Shown: positions 13,245-56,334 of the stretch, one piece after another
How the letters are laid out: the number at the start of each line of letters is the position of its first letter
How positions within the stretch are numbered: the stretch's first letter is position 1
NCBI GenBank assembly: GCA_036387915.1
Contig: DASVSV010000208.1
Coordinates: 1-62,127, forward strand
Direction: 5' to 3'
DNA length: 62,127 nucleotides
Source: Thermoanaerobaculia bacterium
GTDB taxonomy: Bacteria; Acidobacteriota; Thermoanaerobaculia; Gp7-AA8
The notes under the pieces: generated by a model
The model's input: only the letters and a program-made list of their open reading frames with translations
Told to the model about the DNA's origin: nothing
Databases searched by the model: none
Made by a program: the position numbers and the translations under genes

Positions 13245-13556
13245 TCAAATAGGTGGCCCTTCGCCTCGGCTATCGGACCAGACCGCGAGCACCTCAATGA
13301 TGCTCTCGGAGTCGAGCACCCGGTAGTAGAGGTAGTGCCCGATGCGCGAGAGGTGGATGCGGCGAACGTCTGGAAGTTCGACATCCACCGCGGGTGGGCC
13401 GATGCGTGGCTGGTTCAGTATGAGCCGGAAGACACGCATCAGCTCATCCTGCACGGCATTCCGCGCGGCGCTCCGGTTTTTACGCCACCAGGCATTCAGG
13501 TCTTTGACCTGATGACGCGCGACTCGGCTGATGTCGATTCGAAAGAGCGTCGTCAC
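13245..13556 (-). CDS. Type II toxin, RelE/ParE family
   Basis: 103 aa with a ParE-like pattern (A..D...I..Y...... then R..........YY......I.VL.V.H). The GTG start overlaps the antitoxin stop (GTGA). Confidence 0.8.
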   Translation of the reverse strand: MTTLFRIDISRVARHQVKDLNAWWRKNRSAARNAVQDELMRVFRLILNQPRIGPPAVDVELPDVRRIHLSRIGHYLYYRVLDSESIIEVLAVWSDSRGEGPPI

Positions 13557-13780
13557 TCGTCGATCTGCAGCTCACGCAGGAGCTCGTCCGCGCTGATCTT
13601 GTCGCCCCGGTCGCACTCGGCGATCGCTTCCAGAAGAACCGCCTTGAGCTCCGGAGTGACCTCGAACCCGGTCTCATGATCGTCGACGATCAGAGTGACA
13701 TCGGCACCCTCGGGAAGCTCGCCTTCGAAGACGATCCGGCCCTGCACGACTTTGCCTGAAGCAACTTGCATCGTGAGCAT
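13553..13780 (-). CDS. Cognate antitoxin (family not recognised)
   Basis: 75-aa acidic protein immediately upstream of the ParE-like gene with a 4-nt overlap. An AGAGG Shine-Dalgarno lies 5 nt upstream of ATG 13780. Confidence 0.7.
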   Translation of the reverse strand: MLTMQVASGKVVQGRIVFEGELPEGADVTLIVDDHETGFEVTPELKAVLLEAIAECDRGDKISADELLRELQIDE

Positions 13781-13877
13781 TCTACCTCTTGGGTAACAGA
13801 CAACCCCGCCTGGGTGCCGTGCGGTCAACGGCGATGCACCAATCTCTCAGCAAAAGTCAAAGGCGCAGCGGGGATGA

Positions 13878-15201: not shown

Positions 15202-15651
15202 CTATCGCGGCGGTTTGCAGGTCTGGTAGCTGCGGTAGAGCAGGGTGATGCTGCTGGCCGCGCTTTTATCGTCGTAGACCGAGTAGAGCTGCCCCCACGG
15301 CCAATCTGTTTTAGTGCTGCCGAGCGTGCGGACGAGCCACTCGTCGTGGCTCTTGCGCCGCGCTTCCTCTTTCTCCCGCGACCAGTCGTCCCACGACGTG
15401 CCGAAGCGCGGATCGCCGTCGATCAGGGTGATGCTGTGCAGGTGCTCGTCGTGAAAGAAGAGCGAGACGAGAAACTGTCGTCCGTCCACGAGCTGCGGCC
15501 GGAGGACCGCGTTGAACCAACCGGCTTTTTCGTTGGTGTAATCGCCGCTCACGAACATCGGCGAAGCGAGGGCCGACGACTTCGTGGTGTCGCGGCTGAC
15601 GACGCCTTCCGGCGTCGTCAGCTCACCCGTTAGAGGATCGATCTGAATCAT
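15202..15651 (-). CDS. Putative immunity protein for the RHS C-terminal toxin
   Basis: 149-aa cytoplasmic-looking ORF with no signal peptide. Its ATG overlaps the TGA of the RHS gene (ATGA at 15648-15651), the canonical position for a polymorphic-toxin immunity gene. No family was recognised. Confidence 0.65.
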   Translation of the reverse strand: MIQIDPLTGELTTPEGVVSRDTTKSSALASPMFVSGDYTNEKAGWFNAVLRPQLVDGRQFLVSLFFHDEHLHSITLIDGDPRFGTSWDDWSREKEEARRKSHDEWLVRTLGSTKTDWPWGQLYSVYDDKSAASSITLLYRSYQTCKPPR

Positions 15652-18600
15652 TTCTTCATATTAAACACGCGCACCGGCTCGAGGACGTCGGCGTACGACT
15701 CGATGAAATACTGGAATCCGCCGCCGCCCCCATGCTGGCGATTCGCTCTGGTGAGGCCGGCCGGCACCTCGATGTCTTCCTTTACACGATAAGCCTGAAT
15801 CCGGTCGCGGGGCGGGTACTTGCCGGGGCGCATGTCGACCTGAACGAGGTCATGGTAGTCCTTCTGGTTGAGCTTGCTCTTCTTGATCGTCGCCAGATCG
15901 GTGTACCACTGCCCCTGACCGGGGAACGCACCGTAAATGAGCTGACCCTTCTTCAGGCGTGTGATGCGGTATTTATCCTGGCCGCCGTACCCGGGATAGA
16001 GCTGCGCGTTGCGCGCCCGCTCGATCTTCCCGGCGCGGCGCTCGCCCAGGTTCGCCGCGGCCGCGGGTGTACGATTCGACACCGCCTGTCCGCGCACGTT
16101 GCGTCCGCGCTTCGCCCCGAGGGCAGTCAGGGCGAGCTGCGCGGCGGAGACGCCGCCGCGTGTGTAGTCGCCGTGTACCACCGCCTCGTGCAGCGAGATG
16201 GCTGTCTGTGCAACGGTGACGGCGTTGTCGACACGGTTCACAATGACCGACGCGCGCAGGACGGTGCGGACCACGCGGCCCGCGCGTCCAGCCATCGAGG
16301 CGGCGCGTACCAGCACGCCTCCACCCATGCCGCCGGTGGCGACGTTCGCGAGCACGGAGGCGCCGGTGAGCGCCATCCGCATCGCGTACTCCTTCCCGTC
16401 GATCCCCCCGGTCGCGTACTGATACGTGTCCCAGGCCGCGAAGGCGATGTCGACGGCGAAGCCCCACGCCTCGCCGGTGGGATCGTTCTTGTTGATCGGA
16501 TCGTTCGCCGCGTACGCATAGAGGTTCGGCGAGTCGACGTAGCCGCGAGGATCGGGGGTCAGCCAGGTGCCGGTACGCGGGTCGAACCAGCGCGCGCGCA
16601 CGTAGCTCTTGCCGGTCATCGGGTCGAGGAACGGGTGCGCGTGGAAGCTGGACGAAACGATCAGCGTGACCGGATTGCCGATCGGTGAGCCGGCCATGCG
16701 CGGCGTGCCGAGCGCGTAGAGGCTGGGAACGTCGTAGAGCGCGGTGGTCTGCTGTTCGTCCGCCGGGAGCGCGGCGAGCCACTGCGACAGATTGGCCAGC
16801 GACTCACGCACTTCGAGCGGCAGCAGCGCAGATGTGTACACCGGCTTCGTTGCGACCGCCCACGCCGGCGCGGCGAGGAACGGCTGCGCCGAGCTCCACG
16901 CTTCGGCGCGTGCGTCCTTCGTCACCGCGATCGAGAGAGCGGACGGCGTCAGGGTCTGGCCGTCCACGACGACCGGCTCCGTCGAGACGAGCGTGTTCCA
17001 CTCCGCCTCGGTCAGGCTCCACTGCACCGTGGCGCTGTTGATGAGCGACGGTGCATTGGTGGCCGCGCGCACGACCTTGCCGGCCGCGTCGATGACCGCC
17101 AGACGCACGCCTGCCGCCAGCGTCGACGGCGCGAAGTGCTCGGTGGACCGCAGCAGCACGTCGACGGCGGTGATCTTGCCATCGGGGTCGCGGCGCGCGG
17201 AGACCGAGACGCGATCGACCGCGCTGCCCTTCAGCACTGCTTCGTCTTCGCCGTACGGGCCGCCTTCGACGCTGCGCGAAACGATGCGTCCCTGTTCGTT
17301 CAGGATGGCGTCGAGTGAGCCGGCACCGCCCTCGTCGTAAATCGGGTAGAGACGGGCAACGCCGTTTGGCGCGGTCCCATCCGCCGCCGCGACTTCCAGC
17401 GGATCGTCGTAGCGCGCGCCGCCATGGATGATCTGGCGCACCAGACCACCGTTCTCGTCGATCTGAGGATTCTGGCTCGCGCCGGCCTTGTAGATGGCCA
17501 CGAGCTGATCGTCGACCGGGTCCCAGACGAACGTCGCATCCGGCGGAAGTGCGTCGGCGGCGATGACTTCGAAGCGGTCTTCGAGCTTCCAGTCGGTCTC
17601 GGTCGGATTGCTCGTCGCGCCGGCGTACTCCGCGCGGCGGCCCACCATGCGGTCGTCACCGCTGTAGAAGTACTTCACGCGACGGGGCGAGGCCGATTTC
17701 TGCGTGACGACGGAGAGACGGCCCTTCAGGTCGTATTCGTAGATGAACTGCCCGTCTTCACTGCGCTCGCCGCCGTTGAACGAGAACGCCTCGGCGGCGC
17801 TGCCGCGCTGCATCGACGCGATCTTGTGTCCCGGTGCTTCGCTGAACAGCAGCGACGGCGGATCGACCGGAGTGGTCTTCGTACGCATGAGCGCCGAGCG
17901 GAAGTCGGCGGAGTTGAGGTCCGCGCCATCCGGCGTGGAGCCTCCGTCGCGGGCGAGGCTGGTCGCGGTGAGACGGCCGCGTCCGTCGTAGGTCCACTCA
18001 TCCGCCCGCGCGCCGCCGGAGACGCCGAGGAGCTGCGCGCGGGATTTCTGGATGCCGTCCCAGGTGACGAAGGACCCGGCAACGGTGAGGCCACCCGATT
18101 TGACTTCCATCTTGTTGGGCAGGCCGGTGCCGCTGTCGTATCCGTAATCGCGCACGATCTGCGAGCCCGTCACGGTCGTCACGACGCGGCGGTCAGGACG
18201 ATTCGCGTTGCGGTAGTCCGCCTGCAGCAGTGAGCCGCTTCCGGCGCCGCCGGACATCTGCCGTTCGATGCCGATGAGATTGCCCATGGCGTCGTGCTGC
18301 TGCGTCACCGACCGCGTCCACGCGTTCGCCGATGAGAAGCCGGAGTACGTCGGCATCGTGAACGACGTCCGCTCACCGTGCTCGTTGTAGGTGTGGCGCT
18401 GCTCGTATTGATCGATCAGCGTGCCGCCGCGATAGCGCGACTGCGTAGTCTTGCCGGCGCGTCCCTCACCGTCGTAATCGTCGTAGTCGACCACCGCGTC
18501 CGGGGTCTTCCAGCGTGTGATCCGTCCAGCGGGGTCATAGGTGTATTCGTCCAGCACCACGCCGCTGCCGCCCGTGGTCCGTTCGATTTGTCCCTTGGCG

Positions 18601-21600
18601 TTGTATTCGAACGTCTGCAGCCGGCCCTGGCGGTCGGTGATCGACTTCACGCGGCTGCCTTCCCACACGATCTTCTCGGTGGTGCCGTCCCTGTACGTGC
18701 GCTGTGTCGCACGTCCGATGAGATCCGTCTGCGTCGCCGTGACCTCGCTGGACGGGTCGGTGTAGCTGTTCATCGTGCCGGCCGCGTTGTAGCCGAAGGT
18801 CGTGCTCGCGCCGCCCGGCAGCGTCTCGCGCTTCATCGAGCCCTGCGAGTCATACGAATACGTATGCGTCCCGCGCTGCGGCGACGACGAGGCCGTGACG
18901 TTGCCCATCTGGTCGTACTGCTTGGTCCATGAGAGAGAGCCGAGCGTCTGCGCCACGGCTTCGCCGAGGGTGTTGTACTGCATCGCCATCGAGTAGCTGC
19001 CGCCACCCTTCTCGGTCTTCTGCATCTTCTGCGGAAGTCTCCCGCTGTGACCGGAGGCCTGCGCCTGCTCGAAGATCTGACTGATCGACGTGGCGCTGCC
19101 GGCGCCGCTCGCGGTCGATTGCACGCGTCCGGCGGCGTCGAACTCCGTGCGCTGCGCACGGCCGCCGGCACTGACGCCGGTGGTGCGGCCCGCGCCGTCC
19201 CACGCGACTTCCATTGTGGTGGACTGCGACCCGGCCGTCCTGGTCACCGAGCGTAGACGGCCGCCGGCGTATTGCATCGTCCACGAGCGCAGCACCGAAC
19301 CGCTGGCGTCGCGTTCTTCAATGGTCAGCGGATTGCCCATCGCGTCGATCGTCGCGACCGTGCGCGTGCCGTCGGAGGAAAGAACACCGGTGAGGTTGCC
19401 CTGCGCGTCGTAGGCGAATGCGGTCGCGGTCAGCAGATCCGACTCCGCGACGACGTTGTCCTCGAGGTCGTGCGTGTAGTGCGCGACGATCGGGCTTCCG
19501 CCGGTGGTGAGCTCACGGCCGATCGGCCGGCCCAGCGAGTCGACGATCATCGTCGTCACCGCACCGCTGGGATGATTCGTGACGATCGTGCGTCCGTTGT
19601 ACTGGATCGTCGTCGTCGCCGTTCCCACGTCCGCAACGCCCGTCACGCTCTCCGACGTCTGCCGGCCCATGATGTCGTACGTGTACGTGGTGGTGACGTC
19701 GTCGCTGCCCTGCTTGCGCGTGTGCTTGCGCAGTTTGCCGGTAGCGTCGTACTCCCATTTCTCGTCGATGCCGCCGCTGGCGGACATGTGGATCGGGCGC
19801 TGCCACTTGTCGTATTCGATGGTGGTGACGGTGCCGCGGGCGTCGGTCTCGACGGTCTTTGTCGCGCTGGGGTAGTCGAGTTTCGTAAGCAGGCCGCCGT
19901 CCACGATGGACGTCGGGAGGGCGCGGCGGTGGGGGGAGTCGGTGGCCGGCGCGTAGGTGATGGTGGCGCTGGAGCCGGCGCTGGAGGCGTCGGTGCCGCC
20001 GCTGCCGGCGATCGTGGTGAGCTGGCCGGAGGCGTCGAACTTCTCGGTCTCGTTGATCTGATCGTTGTTCGCCGAGGTGTTCTTGTTGTTGCGGCTCGGC
20101 TCGGGCGAGTCGATCTTCAGCCCGTTCGCCGTCATCGAGGAGATGAACGTCGCCAGGTTGGCGCCGGCCTGGTAGGCGATGGTCTGGGCCACCGGCGGTG
20201 CGGCGCCGCCGGTCGTGTTCGAGCCGGTCATCACGTACCCCGGCGCTTCCGGCTCCACATTCTTCCAGGTGAAGGTCGTGCTCCGGACGCCGTCCAGCGA
20301 TGCAGTTGCGTAGTTGCCGCCCGGTCCGTAGGTGAAGCGATACGTGCGGTCCTGCGAACCGGCCGGCGGCACGCCCGGCGAGATGCTGCCGGGGAGCTGA
20401 CCGAACGGCGCCGTGCTGGTGCGGACGGCGGTCTCGGTGATCGAGAGAATGTGGGCGCGGTCGGCGTAGGGGTTGGTCGGCTGCTGCGTCAGCGAGTAAG
20501 TACGCGCCTGGCCGAGGGTGTCGGTCGTCGAGACGCTGGTGGGGCCGTTGTAGTTGAAGCTGGCTGTCTCGCCGGTGCCCCACTTCTGCGCGAGCAGGCG
20601 GTCGCGCTTGAAGCCGGAGCTCGGGTCGTACGTGAACTCGAGACGCGGGCCGCCGCCGCTGAGCACTTCATGCGGCGCGGTGATTCTGGCGAGGTTCGTC
20701 CGCATTTCGAGGACGTCGTTGAAGCCTCCGCCGCCCGGCCCGTACTCGTACGCCACGGCCGGACGTCCACCGCTGACGTTCTGCACCTCGGCCAGTTTGA
20801 CTTTCGTCAGCGTGCCGCTGGCGCTCTGGTACTCGTAGTCGATCTTGCGATCGCGCCAGTCGGTGACCTGCCGGATCATGCCCGGGAACGCGCCCGACGC
20901 GCCGGCCTCGGATTCCTTCCAGTACGTGAACTTCGTGGCGCGCTGCACCGGGTCGACGACCTGCGCCAGGCGGCCGGTCTCGTCATAGACGTAGCGAATG
21001 AGGTTGCCGGAGCCCGGCGCGGACGGGTCGTAGAACTCGTCCGTCTCGAGCGTGATCCGTCCGAGGTCGTCGAAGTCGGTGACGCGCCACTGCTGGTCGA
21101 TGATGCTCCAGCCGCGGCCCGTGCGGGCGAGCTTGAGGAACAATCCTTCCGGCGCCTTGTAGTCGCCGTTGACGTACTTGAACGTCCAGACGTCGCTGCC
21201 GTCGCGATATTCGACGTCGCCGTTCGGCAGCGCGCGGAGACGGCGCAGCAGCGCCGAGTCCCAACCCTGTCCGAACACGCTGCCACCCATGGTGCGCGAG
21301 CGATACGTGCGCTCGACCAGCAGTTCCGTGCCGGCGCGGCCGCCGACGTTGAGGTCCGTCGTCGCGCTGTGCAGCTCACCGGAGTGCAGGAAGATCGTCT
21401 CGGCGATCATGCCCGTCGCCACCGGCGGGTTCTGTCCCGCGGTCAGCACCTCCGTCGGCCGGATGGTGTCGGCCATGATGGTGGTGAAGAGGCCGGACAT
21501 CCGCTTCTGTTTGCCGAGGTACTCGTACTCGGTGCCTTCGAAGACCGTGTCGTCGCCGAGGCCGGCCAGTTCGGGACGGACGGTGAGATAGCGGCCATTC

Positions 21601-24600
21601 GTATAGAGCTCGTAGATGCCGTCGCTCTCGGTTTTCGTCTTGAGGAACTCCGGCCGCTCGCATGCGTAGCAGCCTGCTTCCGCCTTCTTCTCCTTCGAGG
21701 CGCCGTTCCAGTTGTACTGCTCACTGGCGCGCGGGTCGCTGACGGCGACGATCCACGGCGACATGTAGCGGTTGTAACCGCGCTGGTATTTGAGCTGGCT
21801 GGCCAGCGCGTCAGGCACGACACGCTTGAACTTGAAGTTGGTGGCGGCGCGGTCGCCGGTTTCCGACGTGCCGTCGCGGCGCTTGCGGCGCAGGTGCGCG
21901 CGCGGGAAGCCGTTCGGCGTCTGCTCGGTGATGGCGCCGGCGATGCGCTCGCTCTCGACGGCCATCCAGAGCTCGTTGTTCGGCATCGAGTTGAGCAGGC
22001 CGCCGGGCAGACCGACCTCGAGGCGGAACGCTCCCATGGACGCGTTCTCCTTGCACGGCGCCGGCTTGCCGGCGCAGAGGCCGTCGATGGTGGTCTTGAG
22101 ATGATCGGGAATGGCCACGCCGAGAGGAATGACGCCACCGACCTCGGTCAGGCCATTGCCGAGGTTGACCTTCATCTTCACGACCGGGTCGACCGCGGAG
22201 ACGGCCTTGACCACGCGCGCGGCCATGTTCGCGCCGTAGATGATGCCGGTGCTGGCGTCGAAGATCGGCGGCTGCGAGCCGGCCGTGAGACCCGGCTCCG
22301 ACTTCCAGATGATGCGCGGGTCGTCCGCGCCGATCTCGTTCGGATCGGACGGCGTGCCGGCGATGGCCTTCGCGGCCGTCGGGAAGAGACCCTCGACGTA
22401 GTTGCCGTCCGCGTCGAAGCGCTCGTCAATCCGGGAGAGGTCGACCAGCAGCACGCGGCCGTTCTTGTCCGTGACCACGGCGGTGTTCGAGTCCTGCATC
22501 ACGCGCAGGCCGACCGCGCCTCCGGGGATCCAGATGACGTCGGCGATGTGATAGTCGTCGAGGGGGAACGGCGGCGTGAAAAACGGGTCCCCGGTGGTCT
22601 CGACGACGACGATTCCGTAATCGAGCGCCGCCACGAGCAGGTAGTCGCGCTGCGCGGGGAGGTCGCGCAGCGTGCCGCGAATACCGCGCGTGTTCTCTTC
22701 CGCGGTGACCGACCAGTGCACCTGCGACATGGACATCGTGTGCATGTTCGGCGAGCCGATGGCGTTCCGCAGCGCCTGCATGCGCGGCGCTTCGTTGCCC
22801 GGCGGGAACGTGCGGAAGAGCAGGCCGGTCTCGCCGCGCTGGTCGCACGTGGCGTCGTTGCTCGGCGTGCCGGCCGCCGATCCGGAGAGGTGCACGCGGT
22901 AGTCGAGCACGCCCTTGGACGGATGGTTGGCGAAGATGTACAGATCGCCACTGGGATCACCGCGGACCTCGACGTCGGTGTTGATGTAGTTCTCGCCGAT
23001 GGCCCAGATCGGCGGCTCGATGCCGCATTCGCGGCCGACGATGCCGTTGCCGAGGAAGTGCTGCTCTTTATACCGGTTGGCCTGGGTCGTCCCCGGATAG
23101 CGATTCGACTCCATGGCGTTGATGTCGTAGACGCCGACGCCGTAGCCGAGGTGCGCAACGACCGCGTAGGCCCGGCGGTTCTTCACGATGCGAAGCTTGT
23201 CGGTCGGGCGCGCCAGCACGTTCTTGAGGGTGGCGCTGCCGCCGATGGTCGCGTCGGCGGACCAGCTCATGTCGAGATCGGGGTTCTCGATGGTGATGCG
23301 CTGGTAGTTGTACGTGTCGTTCGAGAACGGCACGGTCACGTTGTAGCTCTTCAGGTCTTCGATCGGGAAGTCGGCGGTCTCGCTGGCGCCGGTGCCGGCG
23401 ACGAAGAGCTGGCGGTCCGCAAAGTCCGTCGTGTCGTCCTGGTTGACGATCTTCACGCGGAACGGAATCGACTCGGGACGGTCGGAGAGGATGGTGTTGC
23501 TGGGCAGCCCGATCATCGAGCTGTAGCCCAGCTTCCAGTTGATGATCGACGACGCCTTCGACTGCTGCACCGTCGCACCGGCCACGAGGTCCTCGACGCG
23601 ATAGGTCAGCATCACGCCGACGATGTTCAGGTCGGCGGTGGTGACCACTCGGCCATGACGGTCGACCTGCACGGCCATCGTTTTGTAGATCGTGTTCGGC
23701 GGCCCGATGTGGGAGAGCTGCGGCGCGGTGCCGTTGATGGCGGCCGGGTTCGACATGTCGAACGTGCGTAGTCCGCCGTCGAGGGCAGCCACCATCAGCG
23801 CGTTGCCGTGCATGGCCATGCCGCGAATGACTCCGGTGTCGGCTGCCATGAACGAGCCGATCTCCCCTTCCGGCTTGCGGACGTGGAAAATCAGCGGGAG
23901 GTCGGCGCCGCCGCCGACCGCGACGAGGTTGTTGTTCGCCGCCGGCACCGTGCCCGCGCCGAGCTTGAGCCCCGCTCCCTCGGTGGTGGCATCGGTGAGC
24001 GTGCCCTTCAGTGTGAGACGGTAGACCGCCTCGCGCTGGAGCGCGCCAGGCAGAATGATGTTGATGCGCTTCTCGCCGGAATCGACGGTGAAGCGCGCGT
24101 GCGCGGTGATGTCGGTGTAGTTCGGCTGGCCGCCGGACGCCGGCTCCGGCGCCTGCTCCAGCTTGAGCTGCGTGTGAAGGAAGGCGTCGACGGCGCCGTC
24201 ATCGGACGGGTTCTCGCCGAGGAAGATCGCCTCGTTCAACACGATCGAGACGGGATGCGAGGCGTCGACGTCCTTCTGCTCGATGAGCAGCACGATGCGG
24301 TCGCCGAGCTTCGCACCGATGCTCAGCGAACCACCGGCGGTGCCGGAGACGGACGTGCCTTGCTTCACGTTGAGGAGCTGCACGTGCAGCTCCGAGTCGA
24401 GGGGATCGTCGCTCGGCGACACGACTACGTTGTCGTTCGCGACCGTGACGCTGAAGTTGCGGACCGTGCGGATCTCGATGTCCTCTACGTCGAGGTCGAG
24501 GATCTCGACCCGGAACGGACTGCCGAAGACCGGATACGGGCCGCTGTCATTCTGCTGCGGCGTGGGGATGGTGGCGATCTCGCCCGGCTCGCCGACCGGA

Positions 24601-27600
24601 ATCGGGTCGTATGCGCGCTGGAACGCCTGCAGCCCCGTGGCGCGGTCGATGCCGTAGACCGTGAACGGACGGCCGGTGATCACCGGGATGATCCGACCGC
24701 CGCGCTCGAAGTTATGGACGTACGGGTCGTAGTAGGACCAGAAGATGTCCCACATCAGGTCGTAGCCGGTCTGCAGCCCTTCCATCACCCCCCAGCCGAC
24801 GCTTCCGCCGACCGGAACCTTGATGTCCAGGACCATGTAGCGCCCGCCGCGGATGAGGCGGAGCATGTAGTCGCGGGCCTGCCGGCCGACCAGCGTGGAG
24901 TTCGTGCCGGTCTTGAGGTTCGTGACCCCGATCTTTGCGTTCTGCGTTTCCTCGTCGAGCACCGTCGTGAACTTGCCGTCCTTGACCTGCATCATGTCCA
25001 CGACCGCCAGACGCGGTCCGCGGACGGACATGCCCTTCCACGCCAGGATGAAGTCCCTGCCGGTGGTGTTGAGCCCCGGCGGCACCGCGACTTCGACGTC
25101 GAGCGGCTTGTTGGCGAAACCTTCGAAGTCGATGTTGACGCTGGTCGCGTAGTTGTTCTCGGCCTCGAGCTCCGGGATGTCGAGGAACTCGGCCTTCTGC
25201 GCGGAGTTCACGGTGACGATGGTCGGCGTGTCGAACGCACCCTCGGGCACGTTGACGGTGATGCCTTCCGGCGACGTGAACGTGACGGCCGCTCCCGCCG
25301 GAGCCACGAATCCTTTGCCGTCCTCGGTGACGAACGGCGTGAGCGCGTAGATGCCGGCCAGGGCGCCGTTGGTGTTGACGACCTGCAGGTCGATCAAGTC
25401 GCCCGTCGTCACGCGGTCGCGCACGTCGTCATCGCCGATGAGGAACGAGAACGAGCCGTCGCTCGCGGCGGTGGCCTGATACCGGACGAAAAAGTCGCGC
25501 ACGCGGCGCGTGGCCACGGCCTGCCAGCCGGCAGGCAGCGCGCCGGCATCGCCGGTGATGCGCGAGATGCCGGCTTCGTTCGGGATGGTGATGCGGATGC
25601 GCTCGCGGCGGATCTGCGTGTTGACGAAGACCGCCACGGTGGCGAACGAGAAGCTGGCGCTGCGCGCGAGCGTCGCCCCGTTGGTGCCGCGGATCGACTG
25701 CGAGATGACGACGCTGTACGCGGTGTTCGGCTCGAAGCGCTCGCCGGCGGTGAGCGTCCAGATGACACCGGTCGTCCCTTCGGAGGCGGCGCGGCCACTC
25801 ACGGTCTTGCCGGTGATGGCGTTGACGACGGTGATGGATTCGTTCGTCACGGAGGCAGGGTCGATGGCGGGCGTGAACGCGGCGCGGATGTTCGTGGTCA
25901 GCGCGACGTCGCGCGTGACGGTGCCAAATGTGAGCGCGGCCTGCGACGGGGGATCGCCTTTGAAGATGGTGACATTGCCGAGGACCGGCGGCTGCGGGAC
26001 GAGCAGCAGGTCGACGCGCACGACGGCGTCGGGATCGACCTGTGCGGCGTGCGTGTACGTCGCGCCGTCGCCGGTGGTGGTGTGGCGCGGGACGAGCGTG
26101 AACGGCGCGGCGGGCTTGGCCGGGACCGGCACGTTGTAGATGCCGTTCGTGCGCGTGAGCTCGTGCACGCCGAGGGGGTTGGCGATGACGCGGGCGTCGG
26201 AGAGCAGACGGCCCGTCAGGTCGCGCATGCGCACCGTGCCGGTGGCGAACGCAATCGGCGCGTCGGCGGCGAGGACGATGTAGCGGCCTTCGCGTACGAC
26301 GCCGTCGACGGGCAGCGCGGAGCGGTCGATGGACCTGGTGGTGAAGCGGATTGCGGGCGTCGCGGTCTGCGACGGGTCGACGGCCATCATCGGCGCGGCC
26401 AGGCGGACGATGCGGCCGTACGGCGTCTGGTCGAGCAGCTCGGCCAGGATGACCTGCGCGTTCGGCGCGGGCATCTTCGCCGCGTCGACGCTGAACGTGG
26501 CCCGGGCGGGGACGAACAACTCGACGCCGGCGATGGCGTCGGGCTGGCCGTCGCCGTCGAGGTCCTGCGGCGCGGGTTGCACGGCGCGCTGCAGCGTGAG
26601 CTGGAAGCCGCCGACGACGCGGAAGCCGGCGATGTTGCCGACCGCGGCGAGGTCGCTGGCGTTGAGCGAGGTCGCGGTCGCGCGCAGCGGCTCCGGCACG
26701 GCTCCGGTCGGGATCTCGATGGCCACCTTGTCGTCCGCGGGCACGCGTCCGCCCTCGGAACCGATGAGCGTTCCGCGGTCGAGGCGGCCGGGATACGGGA
26801 GGATGCGGATGTGGTCGAAGCCGACTTCGAGGATGACCTGCGCGGCTTTCGCGCTCGGCGCGAGGTGGAAGTCGGCGATGCCGAGGTCGCCGCTGAGGTT
26901 GCGGTAGAGGAGGAGGTCGGTGGCGAACGGAGGATCGAGGAGGCGCGAGCCGTCGGCGAGACGGAGCTCCTCGTCAATGTACGCTTGTACCGCGGTACCG
27001 CTGGGGAACTTCGCCTCCCCCGCGCCTTCGATGCGCAGCGTGGCCACGGTGCGGCCGGTGGGAACGACGATGGCCGGGTCGAGCTTGAAGTCGCGCTCGA
27101 CCAGCTCCGGCGCGGTGGCCGGCGCGGCGGGCACGCCCTGCAGCACGTCGCCCACGACCGGCAGCGGCGGCGGCGTGAGCCCCGGCGCCTTGTCGGAGTA
27201 GACCAGCGCGTACGCACCGGCGCCCGGAATCGGGAACGACGCGCGGCCGTCACCGGCCACGTTCACCGAGGACGCGAGCACGCGCCATTCGTCGCGCACC
27301 GCGTCGTAGTGCACGGCGGTGAGGTTCTGCGCCGCGGAGGTGACGGCGCCGGCGGGCGTGTGGAACGTGAGCGTCGCGGCGCTCAGCGAAGGCGCGTTCT
27401 CGAGCTGCACTTCGGCCGAGGCGATGGGCGACCAGCCGAGGGGGAGCAGGCCGGTGAGGGCCTGCGCGCTGATGGCGGTGAGCGTCACCTTCGCGCCGCT
27501 GGCGGCGGAGGGAACGGCCAGATCGACCTTCCGGGTGATGCCGGTGTCGCCGCCGTGCGTCAGCGCCAGCGCGGCGCCGGTGGACGTCTGCGACGGGCCG

Positions 27601-30600
27601 CGGTGCGTGAGACGGATGTCGATCGGGATCACGCCCGCGCCGGCCGGCACGATGATCTCGCGGAACACGCTGGTGTAGCCCGCGTGCGCGGCGCTGATCG
27701 TGTGTGCGCCTTCCGGCAGGCGGGCGAGATAGCGGCCGCGCGCGTCAGTGGTGGTGGTGACCGGCGCCGGAGAAGCAACGTCGACGGCGATGGTCACGCC
27801 CGGAAGCGGGCGGCCGGTGGTCGCGTCGTAGACCTCACCGGAGATGAAGCCGGAGCCGTCGCCCGTCTCCGGCTGACCGCCGGCGAGCGTGAACTCCTGC
27901 GTGTACGGCGTGGTCAGCTTGTTGCCGGTCGTGTCTTCGATCTGCGTCCCGACGGTGAGCGTGAACGCGCGCTGGGTCAGATCGGAGGCCGGCGTGACGG
28001 TGACGCTGTTGCCGGCGACGCTGGTGGTGCCGGCGACGGTGGTGCCGTCGCCGAGGGTGAGCACGATGCCGGCGCCGCCGACGCTCACCGTCGACGCGTC
28101 GAGCGCCTCGGAGAAGCTGATGGTCAACTTGTTGACGGTGCGGTCGAAGGCGGCGTTGAGCACCTGCGGACCGCTGCAGTCGACGCGCACGGTGAGCTCG
28201 GCCGCGGGCGAGAGGCTGCCGTCGGAGCCAACCACGCGCACGCGCACGACCGTGAAGCCGGACTGGCCGCTCATCGGATAGGTGAAGGTGAAGCGGCCAT
28301 GCGAATCGGCGGAGGTGGTGAGGACGAGCGTGCCCGACTCGAGGCGCACGCGCGCGCCCGGCGCGGCGGTGCCGGTCACGGACATCGACTGGCCGCAGAC
28401 GGCGCTGCCGACCGGGTCGACGTTCGGCGGCGTCGACGGGGCGGACGAGGCGACGGTGAAGCTGCTCGCGTAAGCCTCGGCGACGGCGGTGCCGGCGAGG
28501 TTCTTCGCGGCGCCGTTCACGCGCATCGTGTAACGGCCGCCCTTGGCGAGCAGCGTCGACGGCGCGAAGGTGAGCACGTCCTTGTCGAGGTAGAGCGAGC
28601 CGGAGACCGGCGCGCCGTTCGCGTCCTCGAGACGGAAGCCGCCGCTCAGCGAGGCCACGTCCATCGGCTGCGAGAAGAGCACGAGCAGCAGCGCGCCCGC
28701 GTCGACTTCGGTCGCGTTCTGCGCGGGGAATGACTCGACGACCTTCGGCGCGTCGTTGAGACGGGTGACGAAGATGACCGTCGCGGCGCTGGTGCCGTCC
28801 GGCTCCGTGACGCGCGCGACCACCGGCGTGGTCGCACCGGAGACCGGCGAGAACGTTGCGGTGGCGGTGTAGCTCGAGCCGCTGATGGTCGCGCCGTTGC
28901 CGTTGACGTCGACCAGCGCGCCCGCCTCCGCGGTGAAGGTGCCGGTGACGGTGAACGTGTTGCTGCCGGGGCCGAACCAGGACTGGCTTGCGGGGGAAGT
29001 GATGCTGATGCCGGGTGAGCCGGCCACGAGCTTCACGACGACCGTGGCCGTGGCCTCGCGGTTCAGGCGATCGCGCCCGGAGACGCGCAGGGTCTGGTCG
29101 CCGCTGGAGAGCGGCACGTCGATGGCCGCGAAGGCGCCGGTGGTGTCGCTGAAGCGCTCGGCGTTCGCGGGCCTGGTCTGGTTGCCGCTCAGGTTCGTGA
29201 CGACGATCGATGCGGGATCGATGTTCGTGTACGTGCCGCTGACGGTGATGCGGTTCACGCCGGTGGTGGCGTTGGCGGTCGGCGTGCTGATGGCGATCGA
29301 CGGCGCGTCCTTTTCGTAGACGCCGCGGCGCGAGGCGGTGGCGGTGCGTCCCGCGGCGTTGCGGCCGTGCGCGACGATGATGTTCAGTCCGTCCGCGAGC
29401 CGTACGGTGGGGACGGTGAAGGTCGTGCCGGTGATGGTGGCGGCGACGCCGTTCACGTCCGCGCTGGTCACGCCCGGGCCGACAGTGCCGCTGACCGCGA
29501 TCGTCTCCTGCGACGTCACGAAGCCTTCGGCCGGCGTATTGATGTTGATCGACGGATCGCCGGTGACGCGCTGCAGCGTGAGCGTGGCGGGCGTGCCGGT
29601 GGGCGTGCCGTTGGCGTCGGTGCAGTTGACGGTGACGACGTTCGTCCCTTCGTTCGGCAGCTCGACGGTCGCGGAGAACGAACCGTCGGCGACCACGGCG
29701 GGGACGCCGTTGGCCTTCACGCCGATCGCGCCGCCGGAGCGGCCGACGATGGTCACGGAACTCGACAGCACGACCGCGTTGTTGGTCGGGTCGAAGCCTT
29801 CGAGCTTGCAGTCGGCGGTGGCGGTGGCGGCGCCGATGAAGAACATCCGCTCCGCGCGCGACTGGTTGCCGGCGCGGTCGCGGGCCGTGGCGACGACGGA
29901 GTGTCCGCCGGCCGCGGTCACGCTCGACGGCGCGGCGGCGACGGTGCCGTCGATGGTGAGCTCGGTGGTCACGGAGCCGCCGGCATCGCTCGCGTCGAGC
30001 GAGATCGCGGCCCGCGTGGCGAAACGAGCGCCGTCGGAGAGCGGCTGGCTCGACTCGAGGATGGTCAGCGACGGCGGCGTGAAGTCGGCCGTGACGTGCG
30101 TCGACGCGGACGTCTGCAGTCCGTTCGACGCGGTGGCCGTGGCCGTGATCGTGTTCTCCCCTTCCGTCAGCGCGTAGCCGGTCAGGCGGAAGCCGCCCGG
30201 CGCGTCGACGGGCACGCTCTGCGTGCCGATGGTGACGGTCGTGCCGCGGCCCGCGGTGAGCAAGCGGCCGGCGACGTCGGTCGAACGGCGGTTGGTGATC
30301 GAGCGATCGGCGGGATACGTGAGGATGATGCCCGCACCGGCGTCGTCGCGCAGGACGGTCACGTCGGCGCGGCCGTTGTTGCCGGCGGCGTCGCGCGCGG
30401 CGATGAAGATCGCGTTGGCGCCATAGTCGAGCGGCAGCTCGACAGCGAATGAGCCGCCGTCGCCGAGGGTCAGCGGCGCGCCGTTGATCGTCGCGGCGAC
30501 GGCGCCGGTGACGGTGCCGCGCACTTCGACACGATCGCTGCGGATGACGGCGTCGTTGGCCGGCGAGGCGATGGTCACGGCCGGCGGTGTGCGGTCGATG

Positions 30601-33098: not shown

Positions 33099-36000
33099 CT
33101 ATTCCTGGGGCCAGACGATGGTGGTGTAGTGGTTTTCGCCGGCAACGAAGATGGTGTTGCCGGCCACGTCGACGTCGGTGACGTTGCCGGGGGTTTTCTG
33201 ATTGCCGAGGATCACCGGCGCGCTCTTGTTGGTGACGTCGACGAAGGTGACGCCCGGACCTCCGGCGTCGGCGACGGCGAGGTGATTCGGACCGGCCATG
33301 TCGATGCCGCGGGCGATGCCCGGAGTGTTGACGATGGTCTTGACGGTCGGCGTGAACGGATTGGTCATGTCGACGATGGCCACCCCCGCGTCGCCGCCGG
33401 CGACGTAGAGCGTGTTGCCGTCGAGCATCGCGTCGAGCGGCTCGAAGTTGGGGATGTCGATGTCGGCGATCTTCACCAGCGCGTTGATGTTGGTGCGGTG
33501 GATGACGGCGATGTCGTGGCCGATGCCCCCGGGGCGGTCGGTGGTGAGCGCGATCAGATACGAGGAGCCCATCGTCACGAGCGAGCGCCAGAGCAGGCCG
33601 CCGGTGCCCATCCCCTGCGACCGCACGTAGAGCGGCGCGGCCGGGTTGGCGACGTTGTAGATGTGGATGCGCGCGTCGTTGTGCCAGTCCTTCTCCGCGG
33701 TGAAGGCGTAGTCGCCGGCGACGGCGATCGCTCCCTCGGAGCCGCTGGGATTGCCGTTCGTGGCCACGTTCATCGTCATCGCGGGGTCGGTGAGGTTGAC
33801 CGTGGCGATGCGCTCGGCGGCAAAGAACGCGTAGCCGTTCGCGAAGACGACGTCGTTCAGCGCGCCGGAGTTGGAGAAGAAGTACTGCGGCGACTGTCCC
33901 TTGCGGTGGAGCATGTACCGCGCGGAGCCGCCGATGGCGGTGCCGTAGAACGAGCCGGTCATGGCCACCGTGTTCGTGCCGTCGCTGACGATGCGGCGCG
34001 CGCGGAAGTTGCCGTCGGCCGCGGTGACGGGGTTGGTGACGACGCTCGTCACGACGCCGTGCATCGGGGTGAGGTCGCGCGTGGTCGTGCGGCCGGCGGC
34101 GTCGGTGATGGTGACGGTGAGCTTCTGCGCCGGTGTCGCGGCGACGGTGGCGGTAAATGAGCCGTTCGCGTTGACGGTGACGGACGGTGAGGGGACAGAG
34201 GTGACGGTGTTGGTCACGTGCGCGGTGAGCGGGGCGATACCGGTCGCGGCCAGCGCGGCACCGGTGACGGTGGTCGCGGTCAACGCCGGCGTGACGGTCA
34301 GCAGCGACTCGTTGAGCATCGGCGGCAGCGCGACGTTGGCGATCGCGGTGACTCCGAGCTCGCTGGCGACATACATCGCGCCGCGGCTGAGGGCAACGTC
34401 GTACGCGGAGCCGGGCACCGGCTGCGAACCGGTCTCCAGCGGCGCGAGGGCGTTCGTGACGTCGATCATGTTGATGCCGTTCGCGCCGTTCGCCACGGCC
34501 AGCACGGAGCCGGCGATGTCGAGGTTGCGCGCCGCTCCGAGGTAGACGGTCGACAGCACGACCGGAGCGGCCGGGTTGCTGAGGTCGACGATGGCCACGG
34601 AACCGTTCGTGCCGTTGATGTATGCGCGGTTGCCGAGCACGCGGCCGTGGAAGGCGTCGAAGTTCGGGATGTCGAGCTGCGACACGAGGCGGAGGTTGTG
34701 GATGTCGCGGCGGTCGATGACCAGCACGTCGCGGCCGATGTTGTTCGGACGGTCGTAGCTGGTGCCGATCAGGTAGTCGGTGCCGAACGCGATCAGGTCG
34801 TTGAAGCGCATCCCGCCGACGCCCACCCCCTGCGAGCGGATGTAGAGCGGCGTTCCGGGCGAGGTGACGTCGTAGACGTGCACGCGGCCGTCGTTGTGCC
34901 AGTCCCACTCCGCCGTGAACGCGTAGCCGTCGACGAGCTCGACGGCGCTCTCCGAACCGCTCGGGTTGCCGTTGGCGGCGTAGTTCAGCGTGGACGTCGT
35001 GCTGCTCAGGTTGAGGGTGATCAGACGCTCGGCAGCGATGTAGGCCCAGCCGTTCTTCACGTCGACGTCCGAGACGATTCCGGCGCCGGTGGCGAGCGTG
35101 CGCTCGTACACCGGATTGCCGGGCGTGGTCACGTCGAAGAGGAGCAGTTTGTCGGAGCTGGTAATGGTGGGGAAGCTCGCCACCACGAGGTCATCACCGT
35201 CCGCGGCCACGGTGCGTGCGCCGAAGTTGGAGTCGGTCATGGTCATGGCCGCGGTGAGGGTGATGTGGCGTGTCTGCAATCCGAACGGAACGTTGCCGAG
35301 GGTGAGCGGGCCGGAGACGCGGCCGGCGGCGTCGGTGACTTTGATCGTCAGCGGGTCGCCCGGCTTCCCGGTGAGCTGCGCGTTGAAGCTGCCGTTGCCA
35401 CCGACGACCGCCGCCGCGCTGACGCCGGTGCGGCCGTTGCGGACCTCGGCCTCGAGGGGACCGTAGCCGAGGAGCGCGCCGGCGGTGCCGATGACGGTGG
35501 CGGCGGAGACGCCGTCTCCGGACGTCCGGATCAGCGAGCGGTCGATGAGCGGCGGGGTGGCCAAGCCGTCGATGACGGCCAGGCCGATCTCGTTGGCGAC
35601 GTAGAGGGTGGTCCCGTTGAACGCGGCGTCCCAGGCCGAGCCGCCCAGCGGCTGATTGCCGAGCACGGCCGGGAGGCCGGCCGGTGAGGCGTCGACGAAC
35701 GTCGCGCCGGCGCTGCTGTCGGCGACCGCGAGGAGCGATCCGGCGGTGGCAATTGCGCGCGGGTTGCCCGGCGTCTGCACCAGTCCGCGCAGCGCGGGCG
35801 CGGCGGGATTGGCGAGGTCGACGACCGCCATCGACGTAGCGCCGGTGACGTAGAGGTTCGTGCCGACGACCCTGGCCTGGAACGCGTCGAAGTTCGGGAT
35901 CTCGAGCTCCCCGAAGCGCTTGAGGTTGTAAATGTCGCGGCGGTCGATGACCACCACGTCGCGGCCGATATTGCCCGGACGGTCGTAGCTGATGCCGATC

Positions 36001-39000
36001 AGGTAATCGGTGCCGTACGCGACCAGGTCGGCGAAGCGGTGGCCGCCGATGCCCAGCCCCTGCGAGCGGATGTACCGCGGCGCGGCCGGCGTGGAGACGT
36101 CGTAGATGTGGACGCGCGCGTCGTTGTGCCAGTCCCACTCCGCGGTGAAGGCGTAGCCGTCGATCAGCTCGACGGCGCTCTCCGAGCCGCTGGGATTGCC
36201 GTTCGCGGCGTAGGTCGGCACGGAGGCGGGGTCGGCGAGGTCGAGCAGGACCAGGCGTTCGGCAGCGACGTAAGCCCAGTTGTTCCGCACGGCCACGTCG
36301 TAGACGTTGCCCGCGCCGGTGCCGAGCGTGCGCTTGTAGACGGGGTTGGCGCGCGTGCTGACGTCGAAGAGCACCAGCTTGTCGGACGCGTTGAGAGCCG
36401 GGAAGCTGGCCACGATGACGTGGTCGCCGCCGGTGGCGACGTTGCGGGCCATGAAGTTGGCGTCGGTGTTCGACGTCGGAATCACGACGCTGCGCGACTG
36501 CGCGCCGAACGGCACGCGGCCGGCGACGAGCGGTCCGTTGACCTTGGCGAACGTGTCGGTGGCCTTGACGGTGATGGTGTCGTAGGCCGCGGCCTCGAGG
36601 ACGGCAGTGAAGCTGCCGTCGCTCTGCACGGTGGCCGTGACGGCCGCGCCGCTCCTGGCGTTGCGGACTTCGGCGGCAATCGGCATCGCGCCGCCGATGG
36701 CCTGCGCGGCGCCGGTCACGGTGACGCTGGTACCGGTCAGCGACAGCGAGATGCGGGAGAGGTTGATCGACGGCGCAACCTGCACCGGCACGAGGGCCAG
36801 TCCGAGCTCGTTCGCGACGTAGAGGTACGGGCCGACGATCGACACGTCGAAGGCGTTGCCGGTGACGGCGTTCGTTCCGACGTGAGCCGGCGCCGCTGGA
36901 GCGCCGACGTCGATCGTGGCCACGCCCGCCGCGCCGGCCGCGGCGAAAGCGTCGTTGCCGGCCACGGTCACGCCCGGCGCCGCGGCGGGAATGGCAACGG
37001 TGCCGGAGACGCGCGGCGCGGCGGGATTGGAGAGGTCGACGACGACGAACTGATTCGAGGAGAGACTGCCGACGTAGAGGTTCGTCCCCACGATCGTGCC
37101 GCGGAAGCCGTCGAAGTTCGGGACGTCGAGCTGCGACACGAGCTTGAGGTTCTGCACGTCGCGGCGGTCGATGACCACCACGTCCCGTCCGACGTTGCCC
37201 GGGCGGTCGTAGCTGACGCCGATCAGGTAGTCGCTGCCGAACGCGATCAGATCGCTGAAGCGCGTGCCGCCGATGCCCATCCCCTGCGAGCGCAGGTAGC
37301 GCGGCACGGACGGCACGGAGACGTCGTAGATATGGAGGCGGGCGTCGTTGTGCCAGTCCCACTCCGCGGTGAAGGCGTAGCCTCCGGCCAGTACGACGGC
37401 GCTCTCGCTGCCGCTCGCATTCGCGTTCGCGAGCACGGGCACGGCGGCCGGGTCGTCGAGCTTCAGAGTGGCGAAGCGGTCGGCGGCGATGTACGCCCAA
37501 CCATTCGAAACGACCACGTCGCGGACGAAGCTGATGCCGAGGTTGACGGTGCGGAGATGCGCCGGGCGTGCGACGTCGCTGACGCTGAGCGTGACCACAG
37601 TCGGGCTGCCGCCGTTGCTGGTGGGATAGCTGGCGACGGCCGCGTAGGCTCCGTCGCGCGAGAAGGTACGCGGCAGGAACGCCGCGTCGACGGCCCACTC
37701 GCTCTTGGCAATCTGCGACGGCGTGGAGGTGCCGTTCGTCAGCGTGCCCACGGTCAGCAGCGTGGACTCGAGCGCGTAGAAGTTCGCGTCGCGCGCCTTG
37801 AGCGTGATGGTCTCGCCCGCGCTGCCCTGCACCGGCACCGCGAAAGAGCCGTCCGCACCGACGGCCACGTTGTAGACGTTGCCGGAGGTGGTGTTCGTGG
37901 CGAAGACGGTGACGGGCGCGTCGAGGTCGATGACCGCGCCGGCTGCGCCGATGACGGCGGAGCCGGTGGCGGTCTGCTGCAGGGTGATCAGCGCCGCGTT
38001 GACCGCGGGCGGCGCCTGGTTGTTGCCGAGGAGCACCGAGGGCGCGTCCTTGTCGATGGTGGTGGTGGTCTCGACGAGGTCGATCACGTCGAGGCGCGCG
38101 TTGCGAAGCTTGACGCCGGCGAACCGGTGCAGGCCGCGCAGCGGCTGGCCGGCGGCCGCGGTCAACGCGTTGGCGGCAACGTCGACGGTGAGGGTTTTGT
38201 TGTCGTTGCTGACGATCGGCCAGCTCTTCGTGCGGTCATAGTTGGCGACGACGCGCACTCCTTCGAGCTGGTTCTGTCCCGGATAGCTCGCATTCGCGTC
38301 GCGCACAAAGGCCGTCCCGACTTCGGTCGCGGTGGAGTAGCCGATCGTCGAGAGCCGCGTGTGGCGCGAGGTTGCACGCGTGCCGTTGTCGACGATCAGG
38401 TCGCCCAGCGCCGCGTTGTCGGCCTTGAGGTAGACCGTGCCGGGCGCGCCGACGGTGCTGACGGCGTTCGACTGCGGAGCGAGGGCGGTGATCTTCGCCT
38501 GCGGGATGGAGAGGGTGCCGTAGTAAAGAGCGATGCGGCCGCCGCCGCCGGAGGCTCCGCTGACGCCGATGCCGCCGTCCGCGTGGATCTCGCCCGCGCC
38601 TTCGATGACGTCCGCGTCGACGCGGATGCTGCCGCCGGCGCCTGCGCCGTCAGCCGCCTCGCCGTTCGCGAGGATCTTGCCGTCAACGACGATGCGCGTC
38701 GCGGCGATGCGGGCCACGCCGCCGCCCGACTTGCAGAGCGAGCAGGAGCCGGTGCCGCTCATCGCACCCGCGGAGCCCGGCGCGTTCGGGTTGACCGCGG
38801 AGCCGTACGTCGCGCCGAGGGTGGCGGTGGCGACGGCCAGTCCGCCCTGACCGGCGTGGCTGCCGCCGGAGAGGTTGGTGGCGCCGCCGGTGAGAGTCGG
38901 CTTGCCGGTCGTCGAGTCGTAAGTGGTTCCGACGCCGCCGACGACGCCGGTCAGGCCGCGGATGGAGACGTCGATCATCGACAGCGGGTCGATGGTGATG

Positions 39001-56225: not shown

Positions 56226-56315
56226 AAGGGAAAAGTGGCTTCGCCGGATTCGCGCTGACGCGATGCGACCGCCGCGTAGCGGCACTTTTACCTTTCTCCC
56301 TTTACCTTTCACCTC
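56206..56315. repeat. Imperfect inverted repeat built from purine-rich AAAAGGN-type short repeats around a 44-nt GC-rich loop
   Basis: The arm at 56206-56238 (GAGGGAAAAGGCAAAAGGTAAAAGGGAAAAGTG) matches the reverse complement of 56283-56315 at 26 of 33 positions. The left arm overlaps the DUF72 stop, and the right arm ends 20 nt before the selB ATG. Confidence 0.65.
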
Positions 56316-56334
56316 GCATGTACGATTCGCGCCG

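Follow-up and report, generated by a model that had tools for sequence, protein, structure and literature searches.

The closest described relative of the system treated here is the toxin at the C-terminal tip of Rhs1, a type VI secretion system (T6SS) effector of Serratia marcescens Db10. This domain, Rhs1-CT, is known from its complex with RhsI1 (PDB entry 6XTD); by high-performance liquid chromatography (HPLC) and toxicity assays it is a glycohydrolase of nicotinamide adenine dinucleotide and its phosphate, NAD(P)+, with a TNT-like palm domain, for which the subgroup name 'Tne3' was proposed (Hagan et al. 2023, PMC10539506). In a later paper, Tne1 to Tne4 are used as established family names (PMC13285283). 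The palm-domain superfamily also holds the TNT/PF14021 group, represented by CpnT of M. tuberculosis, AfNADase and Rhs1CT-SJC1036 ('Tne4'), and the same fold occurs in Tse6 (Tne1) and Tne2, interbacterial toxins with small unrelated immunity proteins. Here we describe a stretch of 62,127 nucleotides from a Thermoanaerobaculia bacterium (contig DASVSV010000208.1 of assembly GCA_036387915.1; this whole stretch is called the window), in which a giant Rhs gene carries a C-terminal extension followed directly by a small open reading frame (ORF). We consider it highly probable that the extension is the cargo of a Sec-exported, surface-displayed Rhs toxin, that it consists of a helical pre-toxin module and an NAD(P)+ glycohydrolase (NADase) of the Rhs1-CT type, and that the producer is guarded by the 149-amino-acid (aa) protein encoded downstream. 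The features concerned are the following.

15648..33095, minus strand: giant Rhs/YD-repeat polymorphic toxin gene, 5815 aa, bearing the C-terminal extension (from the ORF list)
16473..16628, minus strand: end of the Rhs-associated core with a paired DPxG motif (DPRG, 19 aa, DPTG, then E), from TIGR03696 and the sequence
16065..16469, minus strand: pre-toxin linker module, extension aa 1-135, with FAAWDTYQ and TGGMGGG motifs (from about 14 relatives, an AlphaFold2 model and hydropathy)
15651..16064, minus strand: predicted NAD(P)+ glycohydrolase toxin domain of the Rhs1-CT(Db10)/'Tne3' type, extension aa 136-273, protein aa 5678-5815
15202..15651, minus strand: candidate cognate immunity gene, 149 aa, isoelectric point (pI) 5.5, whose ATG overlaps the TGA of the toxin gene as ATGA

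RHS repeats, an Rhs core that ends in paired DPxG motifs and a variable C-terminal domain give the protein the layout of an Rhs/YD polymorphic toxin. The NCBIfam model TIGR03696 (Rhs_assc_core) matches with 55.7 bits against a cutoff of 32.5 (E 5e-15). Since this match ends on the G of DPTG, the boundary at 16469 is the expected autoproteolysis site, and by analogy with the Rhs family an autoproteolytic release at DPTG is probable. In the translation of 15648-17300(-) the core terminus reads ...YAYAANDPINKNDPTGE ahead of the extension, and the C-terminal part of the protein reads ...RWFDPRTGTWLTPDPRGYVDSPNLYAYAANDPINKNDPTGE, then AWGFAVDIAFAAWDTYQ.... Exactly 273 codons follow the core end, from 16469 down to 15651, with the TGA at 15650-15648. 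An initial annotation of this DNA had likewise placed 273 aa after DPTGE at 15651-16469, which both the translation and the end of the TIGR03696 match confirm. The peptides quoted there (AVDIAFAAW, ALTGASVLANVATGGMGGGVLV, AQLALTALGA, YGAFPGQGQWYT and YRVKEDIEVPAGLTRANRQHGGGGGFQYFI) are all present; its pattern 'YG....G.G.WYT' refers to a peptide that exists, but is written one dot too long. As in Serratia Rhs1, the toxin is located at the C-terminal tip beyond a DPxG core, and a small gene lies directly downstream. Unlike Serratia Rhs1, a T6SS effector of about 1477 aa as inferred from residue numbering, the protein described here comprises 5815 aa with a predicted Sec signal peptide and Ig-like arrays. 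Rhs1 also lacks the 135-aa module, so that its toxin follows straight after the core; in a profile alignment, residue 19 of the 6XTD chain already falls within the helix ahead of the conserved core.

A phmmer search of the extension against PDB sequences gave one clear match, 6XTD_A, with E 3.2e-13 over aa 159-266 and an identity of about 31% to the toxin domain. When a profile of 50 family sequences, the window sequence included, was compared with 6XTD_A, the E-value was 1.2e-42 over 128 positions. The PDB title of 6XTD, 'putative deoxyribonuclease RhsA', is outdated, because the deposited protein has been shown to be an NADase (PMC10539506). A word-indexed homologue search with the whole extension returned relatives of the linker only, as those of the toxin domain were lost to the word filter. 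An exhaustive phmmer search against 1.84 billion representatives of clusters at 50% identity, on the other hand, detected 401 representatives of the toxin family at E<=1e-3, 94 of them at E<=1e-10. The domain stops no more than 20 residues short of the C-terminus in 150 of 154 matches and is borne by Rhs proteins, a DUF6443 protein and a RES-domain protein, among others. Such a number of relatives, near-terminal position and variety of carriers mark the tip of a polymorphic toxin. When the end of the Rhs core was looked for with a strict regular expression, it was present upstream of the domain in only 2 of the 154 matches, most of which are metagenomic fragments or non-Rhs carriers. Two family proteins have unusual arrangements: in P0005 (694 aa) the NADase domain is present twice (aa 273-389 and 579-694), and P0030 (2961 aa) has a RES domain, another NAD+-degrading toxin type, that precedes its NADase domain by about 80 residues.

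The structural comparison gave the same picture. An AlphaFold2 model of the toxin domain, computed from the family alignment, reached a predicted local distance difference test score (pLDDT) of 95.7 and a predicted template modelling score (pTM) of 0.88, and shows a palm-domain fold, i.e. a twisted antiparallel sheet with an N-terminal helix. A Foldseek search of this model against the PDB, a check that the initial annotation had suggested, ranked 6xtd_A first (E 2.3e-13, TM-scores 0.85/0.89, root-mean-square deviation 1.6 Å, 129 columns). The next 17 matches (E<=1.3e-3) are solely NADases: AfNADase structures (E 1.4e-5, probability 1.0), other fungal enzymes (Neurospora, Fusarium), Tse6 (E 2.4e-5) and Tne2 (E 1.3e-3). 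TNT itself follows at E 0.11, with noise below. With the TNT group the domain thus shares the palm-domain superfamily and the catalytic-site Gln, but the sub-threshold PF14021 score, a TM-score of about 0.5 and the E-value of TNT place it in a separate family of that superfamily. Tse6 and Tne2 resemble it in fold and expected chemistry, whereas no sequence-level similarity to the toxin domain was detected. We are confident, from both the sequence matches and the predicted fold, that the toxin domain belongs to the Rhs1CT-Db10 ('Tne3') family of NADases, which is itself part of the TNT-like superfamily. Thereby the proposal of a TNT-type NAD-targeting toxin in the last ~125-138 aa holds true, while a new toxin fold, which had been left as an equal alternative, is refuted by the match to a solved NADase at the levels of sequence and model. 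An identity as nuclease or deaminase was also considered and rejected.

For a comparison of the active sites we used an offset of +1318 between the 6XTD chain and Rhs1 numbering, which recovers every residue named in the Serratia study (PMC10539506): Y1359, G1361, D1363, S1384, F1386, S1399, Q1408, V1409, H1412, R1418, I1438, S1439, Q1440, G1446 and Q1452. According to the alignment, Q1354, Y1359, G1361, D1363, Q1408, V1409 and G1446 of Rhs1-CT are identical in the toxin domain, and three further codons correspond to essential or strictly conserved residues.

15906..15908, minus strand: codon of Trp5730, aligned with the essential Phe1386 of Rhs1-CT (the aromatic residue stacking on ribose/nicotinamide)
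15807..15809, minus strand: codon of Arg5763, aligned with the essential Arg1418 (phosphate contact)
15711..15713, minus strand: codon of Gln5795 (the Q of GGGGGFQY), aligned with Gln1452

In Serratia, the F1386A, R1418A and Q1452A variants of Rhs1-CT were each non-toxic, and Gln1452 is strictly conserved across TNT-type NADases, including Tse6, Tne2 and AfNADase (PMC10539506). The Q of GGGGGFQY had rightly been singled out as the key Gln. Q1354, D1363 and Q1452 form a polar cluster in Rhs1-CT, and the same residues occur in the toxin domain. Hence, the two proteins agree in sequence family, fold and active-site set (Q, Y, D, aromatic, Q-V, R, Q). Among 149 family members, the column equivalent to position 1386 (aromatic188) is aromatic in all but one (F 82, Y 40, W 26), and the remaining sites are near-invariant: Q156 (141), Y161 (141), D165 (146), Q210 (149), R221 (147), N243 (149) and Q253 (145). 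All of these near-invariant positions are intact in the toxin domain.

TNT-like NADases share their core with the toxins of the ADP-ribosyltransferase (ART) type, and the chemistries are inseparable by fold alone. One may thus ask whether the domain uses NAD+ as a donor instead, either as an ART acting on protein or RNA or as an ADP-ribosyl cyclase, both of which would have this palm/ART-like fold. Rhs-borne ARTs and cyclases do exist, and ART-fold Tne5 and ARC toxins have been mentioned (PMC13285283). We regard such a donor chemistry as very improbable, as by far the nearest relative has been proven to be a hydrolase, with ADP-ribose and nicotinamide as its products, and no ART or cyclase structure is among the significant Foldseek matches. 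A Gln, not a Glu, at the catalytic position of TNT-type enzymes goes along with hydrolase over transferase chemistry. In place of the catalytic Glu of ARTs (R-S-E or H-Y-E) the toxin domain has Gln5795, a position occupied by Gln in 145 of the 149 relatives and, likewise, in TNT, Tse6, Tne2 and AfNADase; here we take the equivalence of Gln5795 with the ART Glu from established knowledge of TNT-type enzymes.

The ORF at 15202-15651(-), which the initial annotation had listed, does adjoin the toxin. Its product has a pI of 5.5, compared with 9.9 for the toxin domain, and carries no signal peptide. An orthologue of the whole arrangement, about 93% identical at the protein level, is present in a second metagenome (locus L001) with the same Rhs protein, extension and downstream ORF, so that the 149-aa ORF stays beside the toxin. 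Apart from this orthologue (95% identity for the 149-aa protein, a single cluster), no homologues were found, and searches of Pfam, NCBIfam and the PDB gave no relative. From an alignment of seven family sequences we obtained six related genome loci (Botrimarina, Bacteroidota, Nitrospirillum, Peregrinibacteria, a gammaproteobacterial metagenome-assembled genome (MAG) and Christensenella). The 149-aa protein is not similar to the ORFs downstream of the toxin in any of these six loci, and those ORFs represent at least three further types. Since the immunity types differ between family loci, immunity of the RhsI1 type is not defining for this toxin family. The same pattern was noted in the Serratia study, where immunity proteins of one NADase fold are diverse (PMC10539506).

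Two observations on the other loci may be added. ORFs of about 90 aa directly downstream of family toxins in L002 (5435-5701, planctomycete), L003 (559-834, Bacteroidota MAG) and L007 (4052-4324, Christensenella MAG) resemble one another weakly (BLASTP E-values between 1e-4 and 1e-3, against a tiny database) and match no Pfam model; possibly they constitute another family of immunity proteins against NADases of this type. Moreover, L005 (142-1097, a Peregrinibacteria MAG of the Candidate Phyla Radiation, CPR) and L006 (5001-5947, a MAG labelled Gammaproteobacteria) have a near-identical toxin, 93-aa downstream ORF and following genes, which points either to a very recent transfer or to a binning or contamination problem.

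The carrier is an unbroken reading frame over all 5815 codons. A Pfam scan detected Ig-like arrays (Glucodextran_B, Big_13, Big_5, CarbopepD_reg_2), followed by DUF6531 and RHS repeats (PF05593, 9e-26) in the last ~1900 residues. At the other end of the protein, the N-terminus looks like a Sec signal peptide.

33042..33095, minus strand: predicted Sec signal peptide MRRTATLIAVLFASLALA, followed by Q after the presumed cleavage site; recognised by eye from a basic n-region, a hydrophobic core and an A-x-A site

Neither a PAAR nor a VgrG domain was found in the Rhs protein by the Pfam scan. On present evidence the label 'type VI effector' does not apply, in view of the missing PAAR/VgrG domains, the Sec-type signal peptide and the lack of T6SS genes among the scanned neighbours. 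In this respect the system differs from Tse6 and Tne2, which travel as PAAR-linked T6SS cargo, possess N-terminal transmembrane domains and depend on EF-Tu or a chaperone; nothing of the kind was seen in the Rhs protein. It is more reminiscent of Sec-dependent Rhs/YD toxins such as WapA of Bacillus subtilis, i.e. the 'T2SS/Sec-dependent, RHS repeats' class (Zhang et al. 2012, PMC3482391), with which it has in common a signal peptide, a long presentation region, an Rhs shell, a variable toxin and an adjacent immunity gene. With its 5815 aa, however, the Rhs protein is far larger, and its toxin type and pre-toxin module are different.

From these comparisons the following course of events may be proposed. 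The Rhs core would cut itself at DPRG...DPTG(E) and thereby free the 273-aa fragment of ~29 kDa, which would start at or beside Ala5543 and is composed of a helical module of ~135 aa and a palm-fold NADase of ~138 aa. In the target cell the enzyme would convert NAD+ and NADP+ into nicotinamide and ADP-ribose(-phosphate), whereby Trp5730 and Tyr5703 would hold the nicotinamide-ribose and Arg5763 the phosphates, while the cluster of Gln5698, Asp5707 and Gln5795 would position the ribose and water. The expected outcome is that redox metabolism collapses and growth stops. The producer would be protected by the translationally coupled acidic 149-aa protein, most likely through plugging of the active-site cleft, as other, unrelated NADase immunity proteins do; its HDEHLH stretch at aa 67-72 is a candidate for the inserted loop.

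Several points weigh against this interpretation. The functional assignment of the toxin domain hangs on one characterised relative at about 31% identity, and the hydrolysis of NAD+ and NADP+, and not of their reduced forms, is a predicted activity. The Pfam TNT model PF14021 reaches only E 0.059 and 14.3 bits at aa 222-257 of the extension, below its gathering threshold of 27 bits. The TNT motif named in the initial annotation thus coincides with this weak PF14021 match, but by the Pfam threshold the domain is not a PF14021 member. A scan of 50 family members with the Pfam models did not give a single match at E<=0.01. By alignment, S1384, S1399 and H1412 of the Serratia enzyme are replaced by G, N and R/P, respectively, and mutation of any of these three residues led to a partial loss of toxicity in Rhs1-CT (PMC10539506); the variants are common in the family (G 17/149, N 31/149). 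As for delivery, no T6SS genes were seen among the scanned neighbours within the window, and no delivery machinery is identifiable there. Finally, it is by its position that the 149-aa protein is likely to be the cognate immunity protein; neither RhsI1 (163 aa, with His131 as plug) nor another known immunity protein is similar to it, and a comparison with 6XTD chain B gave no match even at E<=10.

The three secondary residues that differ from the Serratia enzyme could be taken as a sign of a toxin/immunity tip that is no more than a relic, decayed or inactive, in which case the giant protein would serve as an adhesin only. When the window is compared with the L001 orthologue, the ratio of nonsynonymous to synonymous substitution rates (dN/dS) is 0.26 for the linker, 0.14 for the toxin domain and 0.16 for the 149-aa ORF, with dS values of 0.13-0.23 over the three parts. 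Linker, toxin domain and 149-aa ORF are thus under purifying selection. Given these ratios for toxin and ORF, active-site residues that are unchanged between the orthologues, intact near-invariant positions and the intact frame of 5815 codons, a relic is scarcely credible.

We now turn to the first half of the extension. The linker is rich in Ala, Gly and Val (A+G+V 46%) and has a net charge of +7. Sequence and then profile searches led to about a dozen related proteins, and three further metagenomic loci were added, which amounts to ~14 relatives. In every relative found, the linker directly follows DPxG[E/L] of the Rhs core, and among five sequences at 43-50% identity 29 columns are invariant, including W2, FA..DTYQ, EY, MAL, TGGMGGG and R55. 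The toxins encoded 3' of the module, in contrast, differ: they are Tox-SHH HNH nucleases, a Hint domain and several domains without a Pfam match. The linker itself has no match in Pfam or NCBIfam, and a search of its profile against the PDB returned noise only (DELLA proteins, E ~0.8). Judged by its sequence conservation, the linker is a rare, conserved and exchangeable pre-toxin module rather than a low-complexity accident. In an AlphaFold2 model of the whole extension it is helical throughout; the helices at aa 2-19 and 25-45, which form a first hairpin, have pLDDT values of 81-91, the remainder lies at 34-63, and residues 63-84 fall below 50.

One related locus, L011 (908-3052), contains an Rhs tip with the same pre-toxin module (…DPTGELIGFVFDAAFAAYDTYQ…), in which the TGGMGGG loop is changed to SAGTAGTA. 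Here the module precedes a basic domain of ~150 aa and a downstream ORF of 220 aa, neither of which has a Pfam match; the two may be an uncharacterised toxin-immunity pair.

The composition of the linker invites the idea that it is membrane-active, either as a glycine-zipper pore or depolariser like Tse5-CT or by means of transmembrane helices that carry the NADase across the inner membrane. Its richness in Ala, Gly and Val and its positive net charge, one uncharged stretch of 23 residues (MALTGASVLANVATGGMGGGVLV) and the helical prediction are compatible with this view, as is the reuse of the module ahead of an NADase and of Tox-SHH nucleases, all of which need access to the cytoplasm; furthermore, there is no established route for non-T6SS Rhs cargo across membranes. 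On the other hand, the most hydrophobic stretch of 19 residues (GASVLANVATGGMGGGVLV) has a Kyte-Doolittle mean of 1.28, short of the customary cutoff of 1.6 for a membrane span. GxxxGxxxG does not occur in the linker, and triplets of the small-xxx-small-xxx-small type number 8, when ~6.4 are expected from 37% G/A/S. No PDB sequence match to the linker was obtained either. The invariant residues are mostly polar or aromatic (D14, T15, Y16, Q17, E27, Y28, R55) and would befit a module that is folded or serves in binding; the later helices contain much Arg, no similarity to a solved protein was found, and the AlphaFold2 confidence is low past aa 45. A membrane-active linker is therefore unlikely. 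Of the features ascribed to the linker in the initial annotation, the Gly/Ala-rich composition stands; a glycine-zipper-like character does not, as the motif is not above chance, and helices for membrane insertion or translocation are not established.

Alternatively, the linker may be a passive spacer for packaging or tethering that fills the unusually large Rhs shell or guides the cargo as it is threaded and released, and that does nothing in the target cell. This would agree with its start exactly at the autoproteolysis site in every relative and with its absence from Serratia Rhs1. It is also confined to a small set of related metagenomic Rhs proteins, which fits a co-evolution with one type of Rhs shell and not with a target. 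Yet 29 invariant columns and a dN/dS of 0.26 exceed the needs of a mere spacer, and we hold a purely passive role to be possible but somewhat doubtful. The partners of the linker all act in the cytoplasm, which fits a role in entry or release, although packaging peculiar to this Rhs lineage fits too. Our preferred guess is that the module aids release from the Rhs shell or the crossing of the target's inner membrane. It is tempting to go further and to see in it a dedicated, exchangeable entry device for the cargo of Sec-secreted, T6SS-independent giant Rhs proteins, with the 149-aa protein as a further independent way to block a TNT-type NADase. Such an entry device would explain why recombination has put the module before toxins that are unrelated but all act in the cytoplasm, among them the NADase and the SHH nuclease. 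We put this forward as speculation that is rather unlikely to hold in its entirety. The arrangement is reminiscent of bipartite CdiA-CT toxins, in which a conserved N-terminal sub-domain is recombined with different catalytic toxins; the linker has no homology to them, and the likeness is architectural only.

Base composition at the third codon position (GC3) was inspected across the same parts. GC3 amounts to 0.859 in the linker, 0.819 in the toxin domain and 0.826 in the 149-aa ORF, while the body of the Rhs gene (16470-33095), divided into 40 equal-sized chunks, has a value of 0.916 +/- 0.035 with a minimum of 0.826. The toxin domain and the 149-aa ORF (15205-16064) are thus at or below the minimum of the Rhs body, and the drop starts near the junction of linker and toxin, not at the DPTGE site. 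This pattern is suggestive of a mild cassette signature, to which amino-acid composition contributes.

Apart from a gene for a second giant secreted protein, the scanned neighbours serve housekeeping functions (enolase, rhodanese, signal peptidase, SelB, PolA). In this region the window is identical to a JGI metagenome contig (Ga0334942_000052, JGI 3300034008). Because genes for SelB, the selenocysteine-specific elongation factor (56263-58212 (+)), and DNA polymerase I (59299-61962 (-)) are present, the region is chromosomal and not a mobile element; a megablast search gave no plasmid match to the toxin/immunity cassette. The second giant ORF (5941 aa, 33099-50924 (-)) has its stop 4 nt ahead of the Rhs start codon. 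Its product shows a signal-peptide-like N-terminus (…AVSSALA/GE), CarboxypepD_reg, Big_5, SdrD_B, LVIVD repeats and a beta-propeller, and it is possibly co-expressed with the Rhs protein as its partner. Between enolase and rhodanese, a gene for a ParE-family toxin (103 aa) and a small upstream ORF are located at 13245-13828 (-). The ParE gene is also present in contigs L008 and L009 and is absent from the ~93%-identical L001, where the gap between enolase and rhodanese is about 400 bp; this locus is a strain-specific toxin-antitoxin insertion.

Overall, the cassette is of an ordinary polymorphic toxin-immunity type. It is modestly unusual in its giant, Sec-type and apparently T6SS-independent carrier, its unannotated pre-toxin module and its orphan immunity candidate. 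For this uncultured soil-type bacterium, the analysis provides a concrete predicted function, depletion of NAD(P)+, for the tip of an orphan protein of 5815 aa. The Rhs1-CT NADase family is large, with at least 401 clusters at 50% identity, and absent from the Pfam models, and it reaches beyond T6SS effectors and Enterobacteria into Planctomycetota, Bacteroidota, Alphaproteobacteria, CPR and Bacillota. The 149-aa protein adds another unrelated candidate immunity protein for a toxin class that is known for convergent immunity. Should the pre-toxin module indeed mediate entry, it would bear on the question of how T6SS-independent Rhs cargo gets into the cytoplasm, and it would be the Rhs counterpart of the cytoplasm-entry domains of CdiA-CT.

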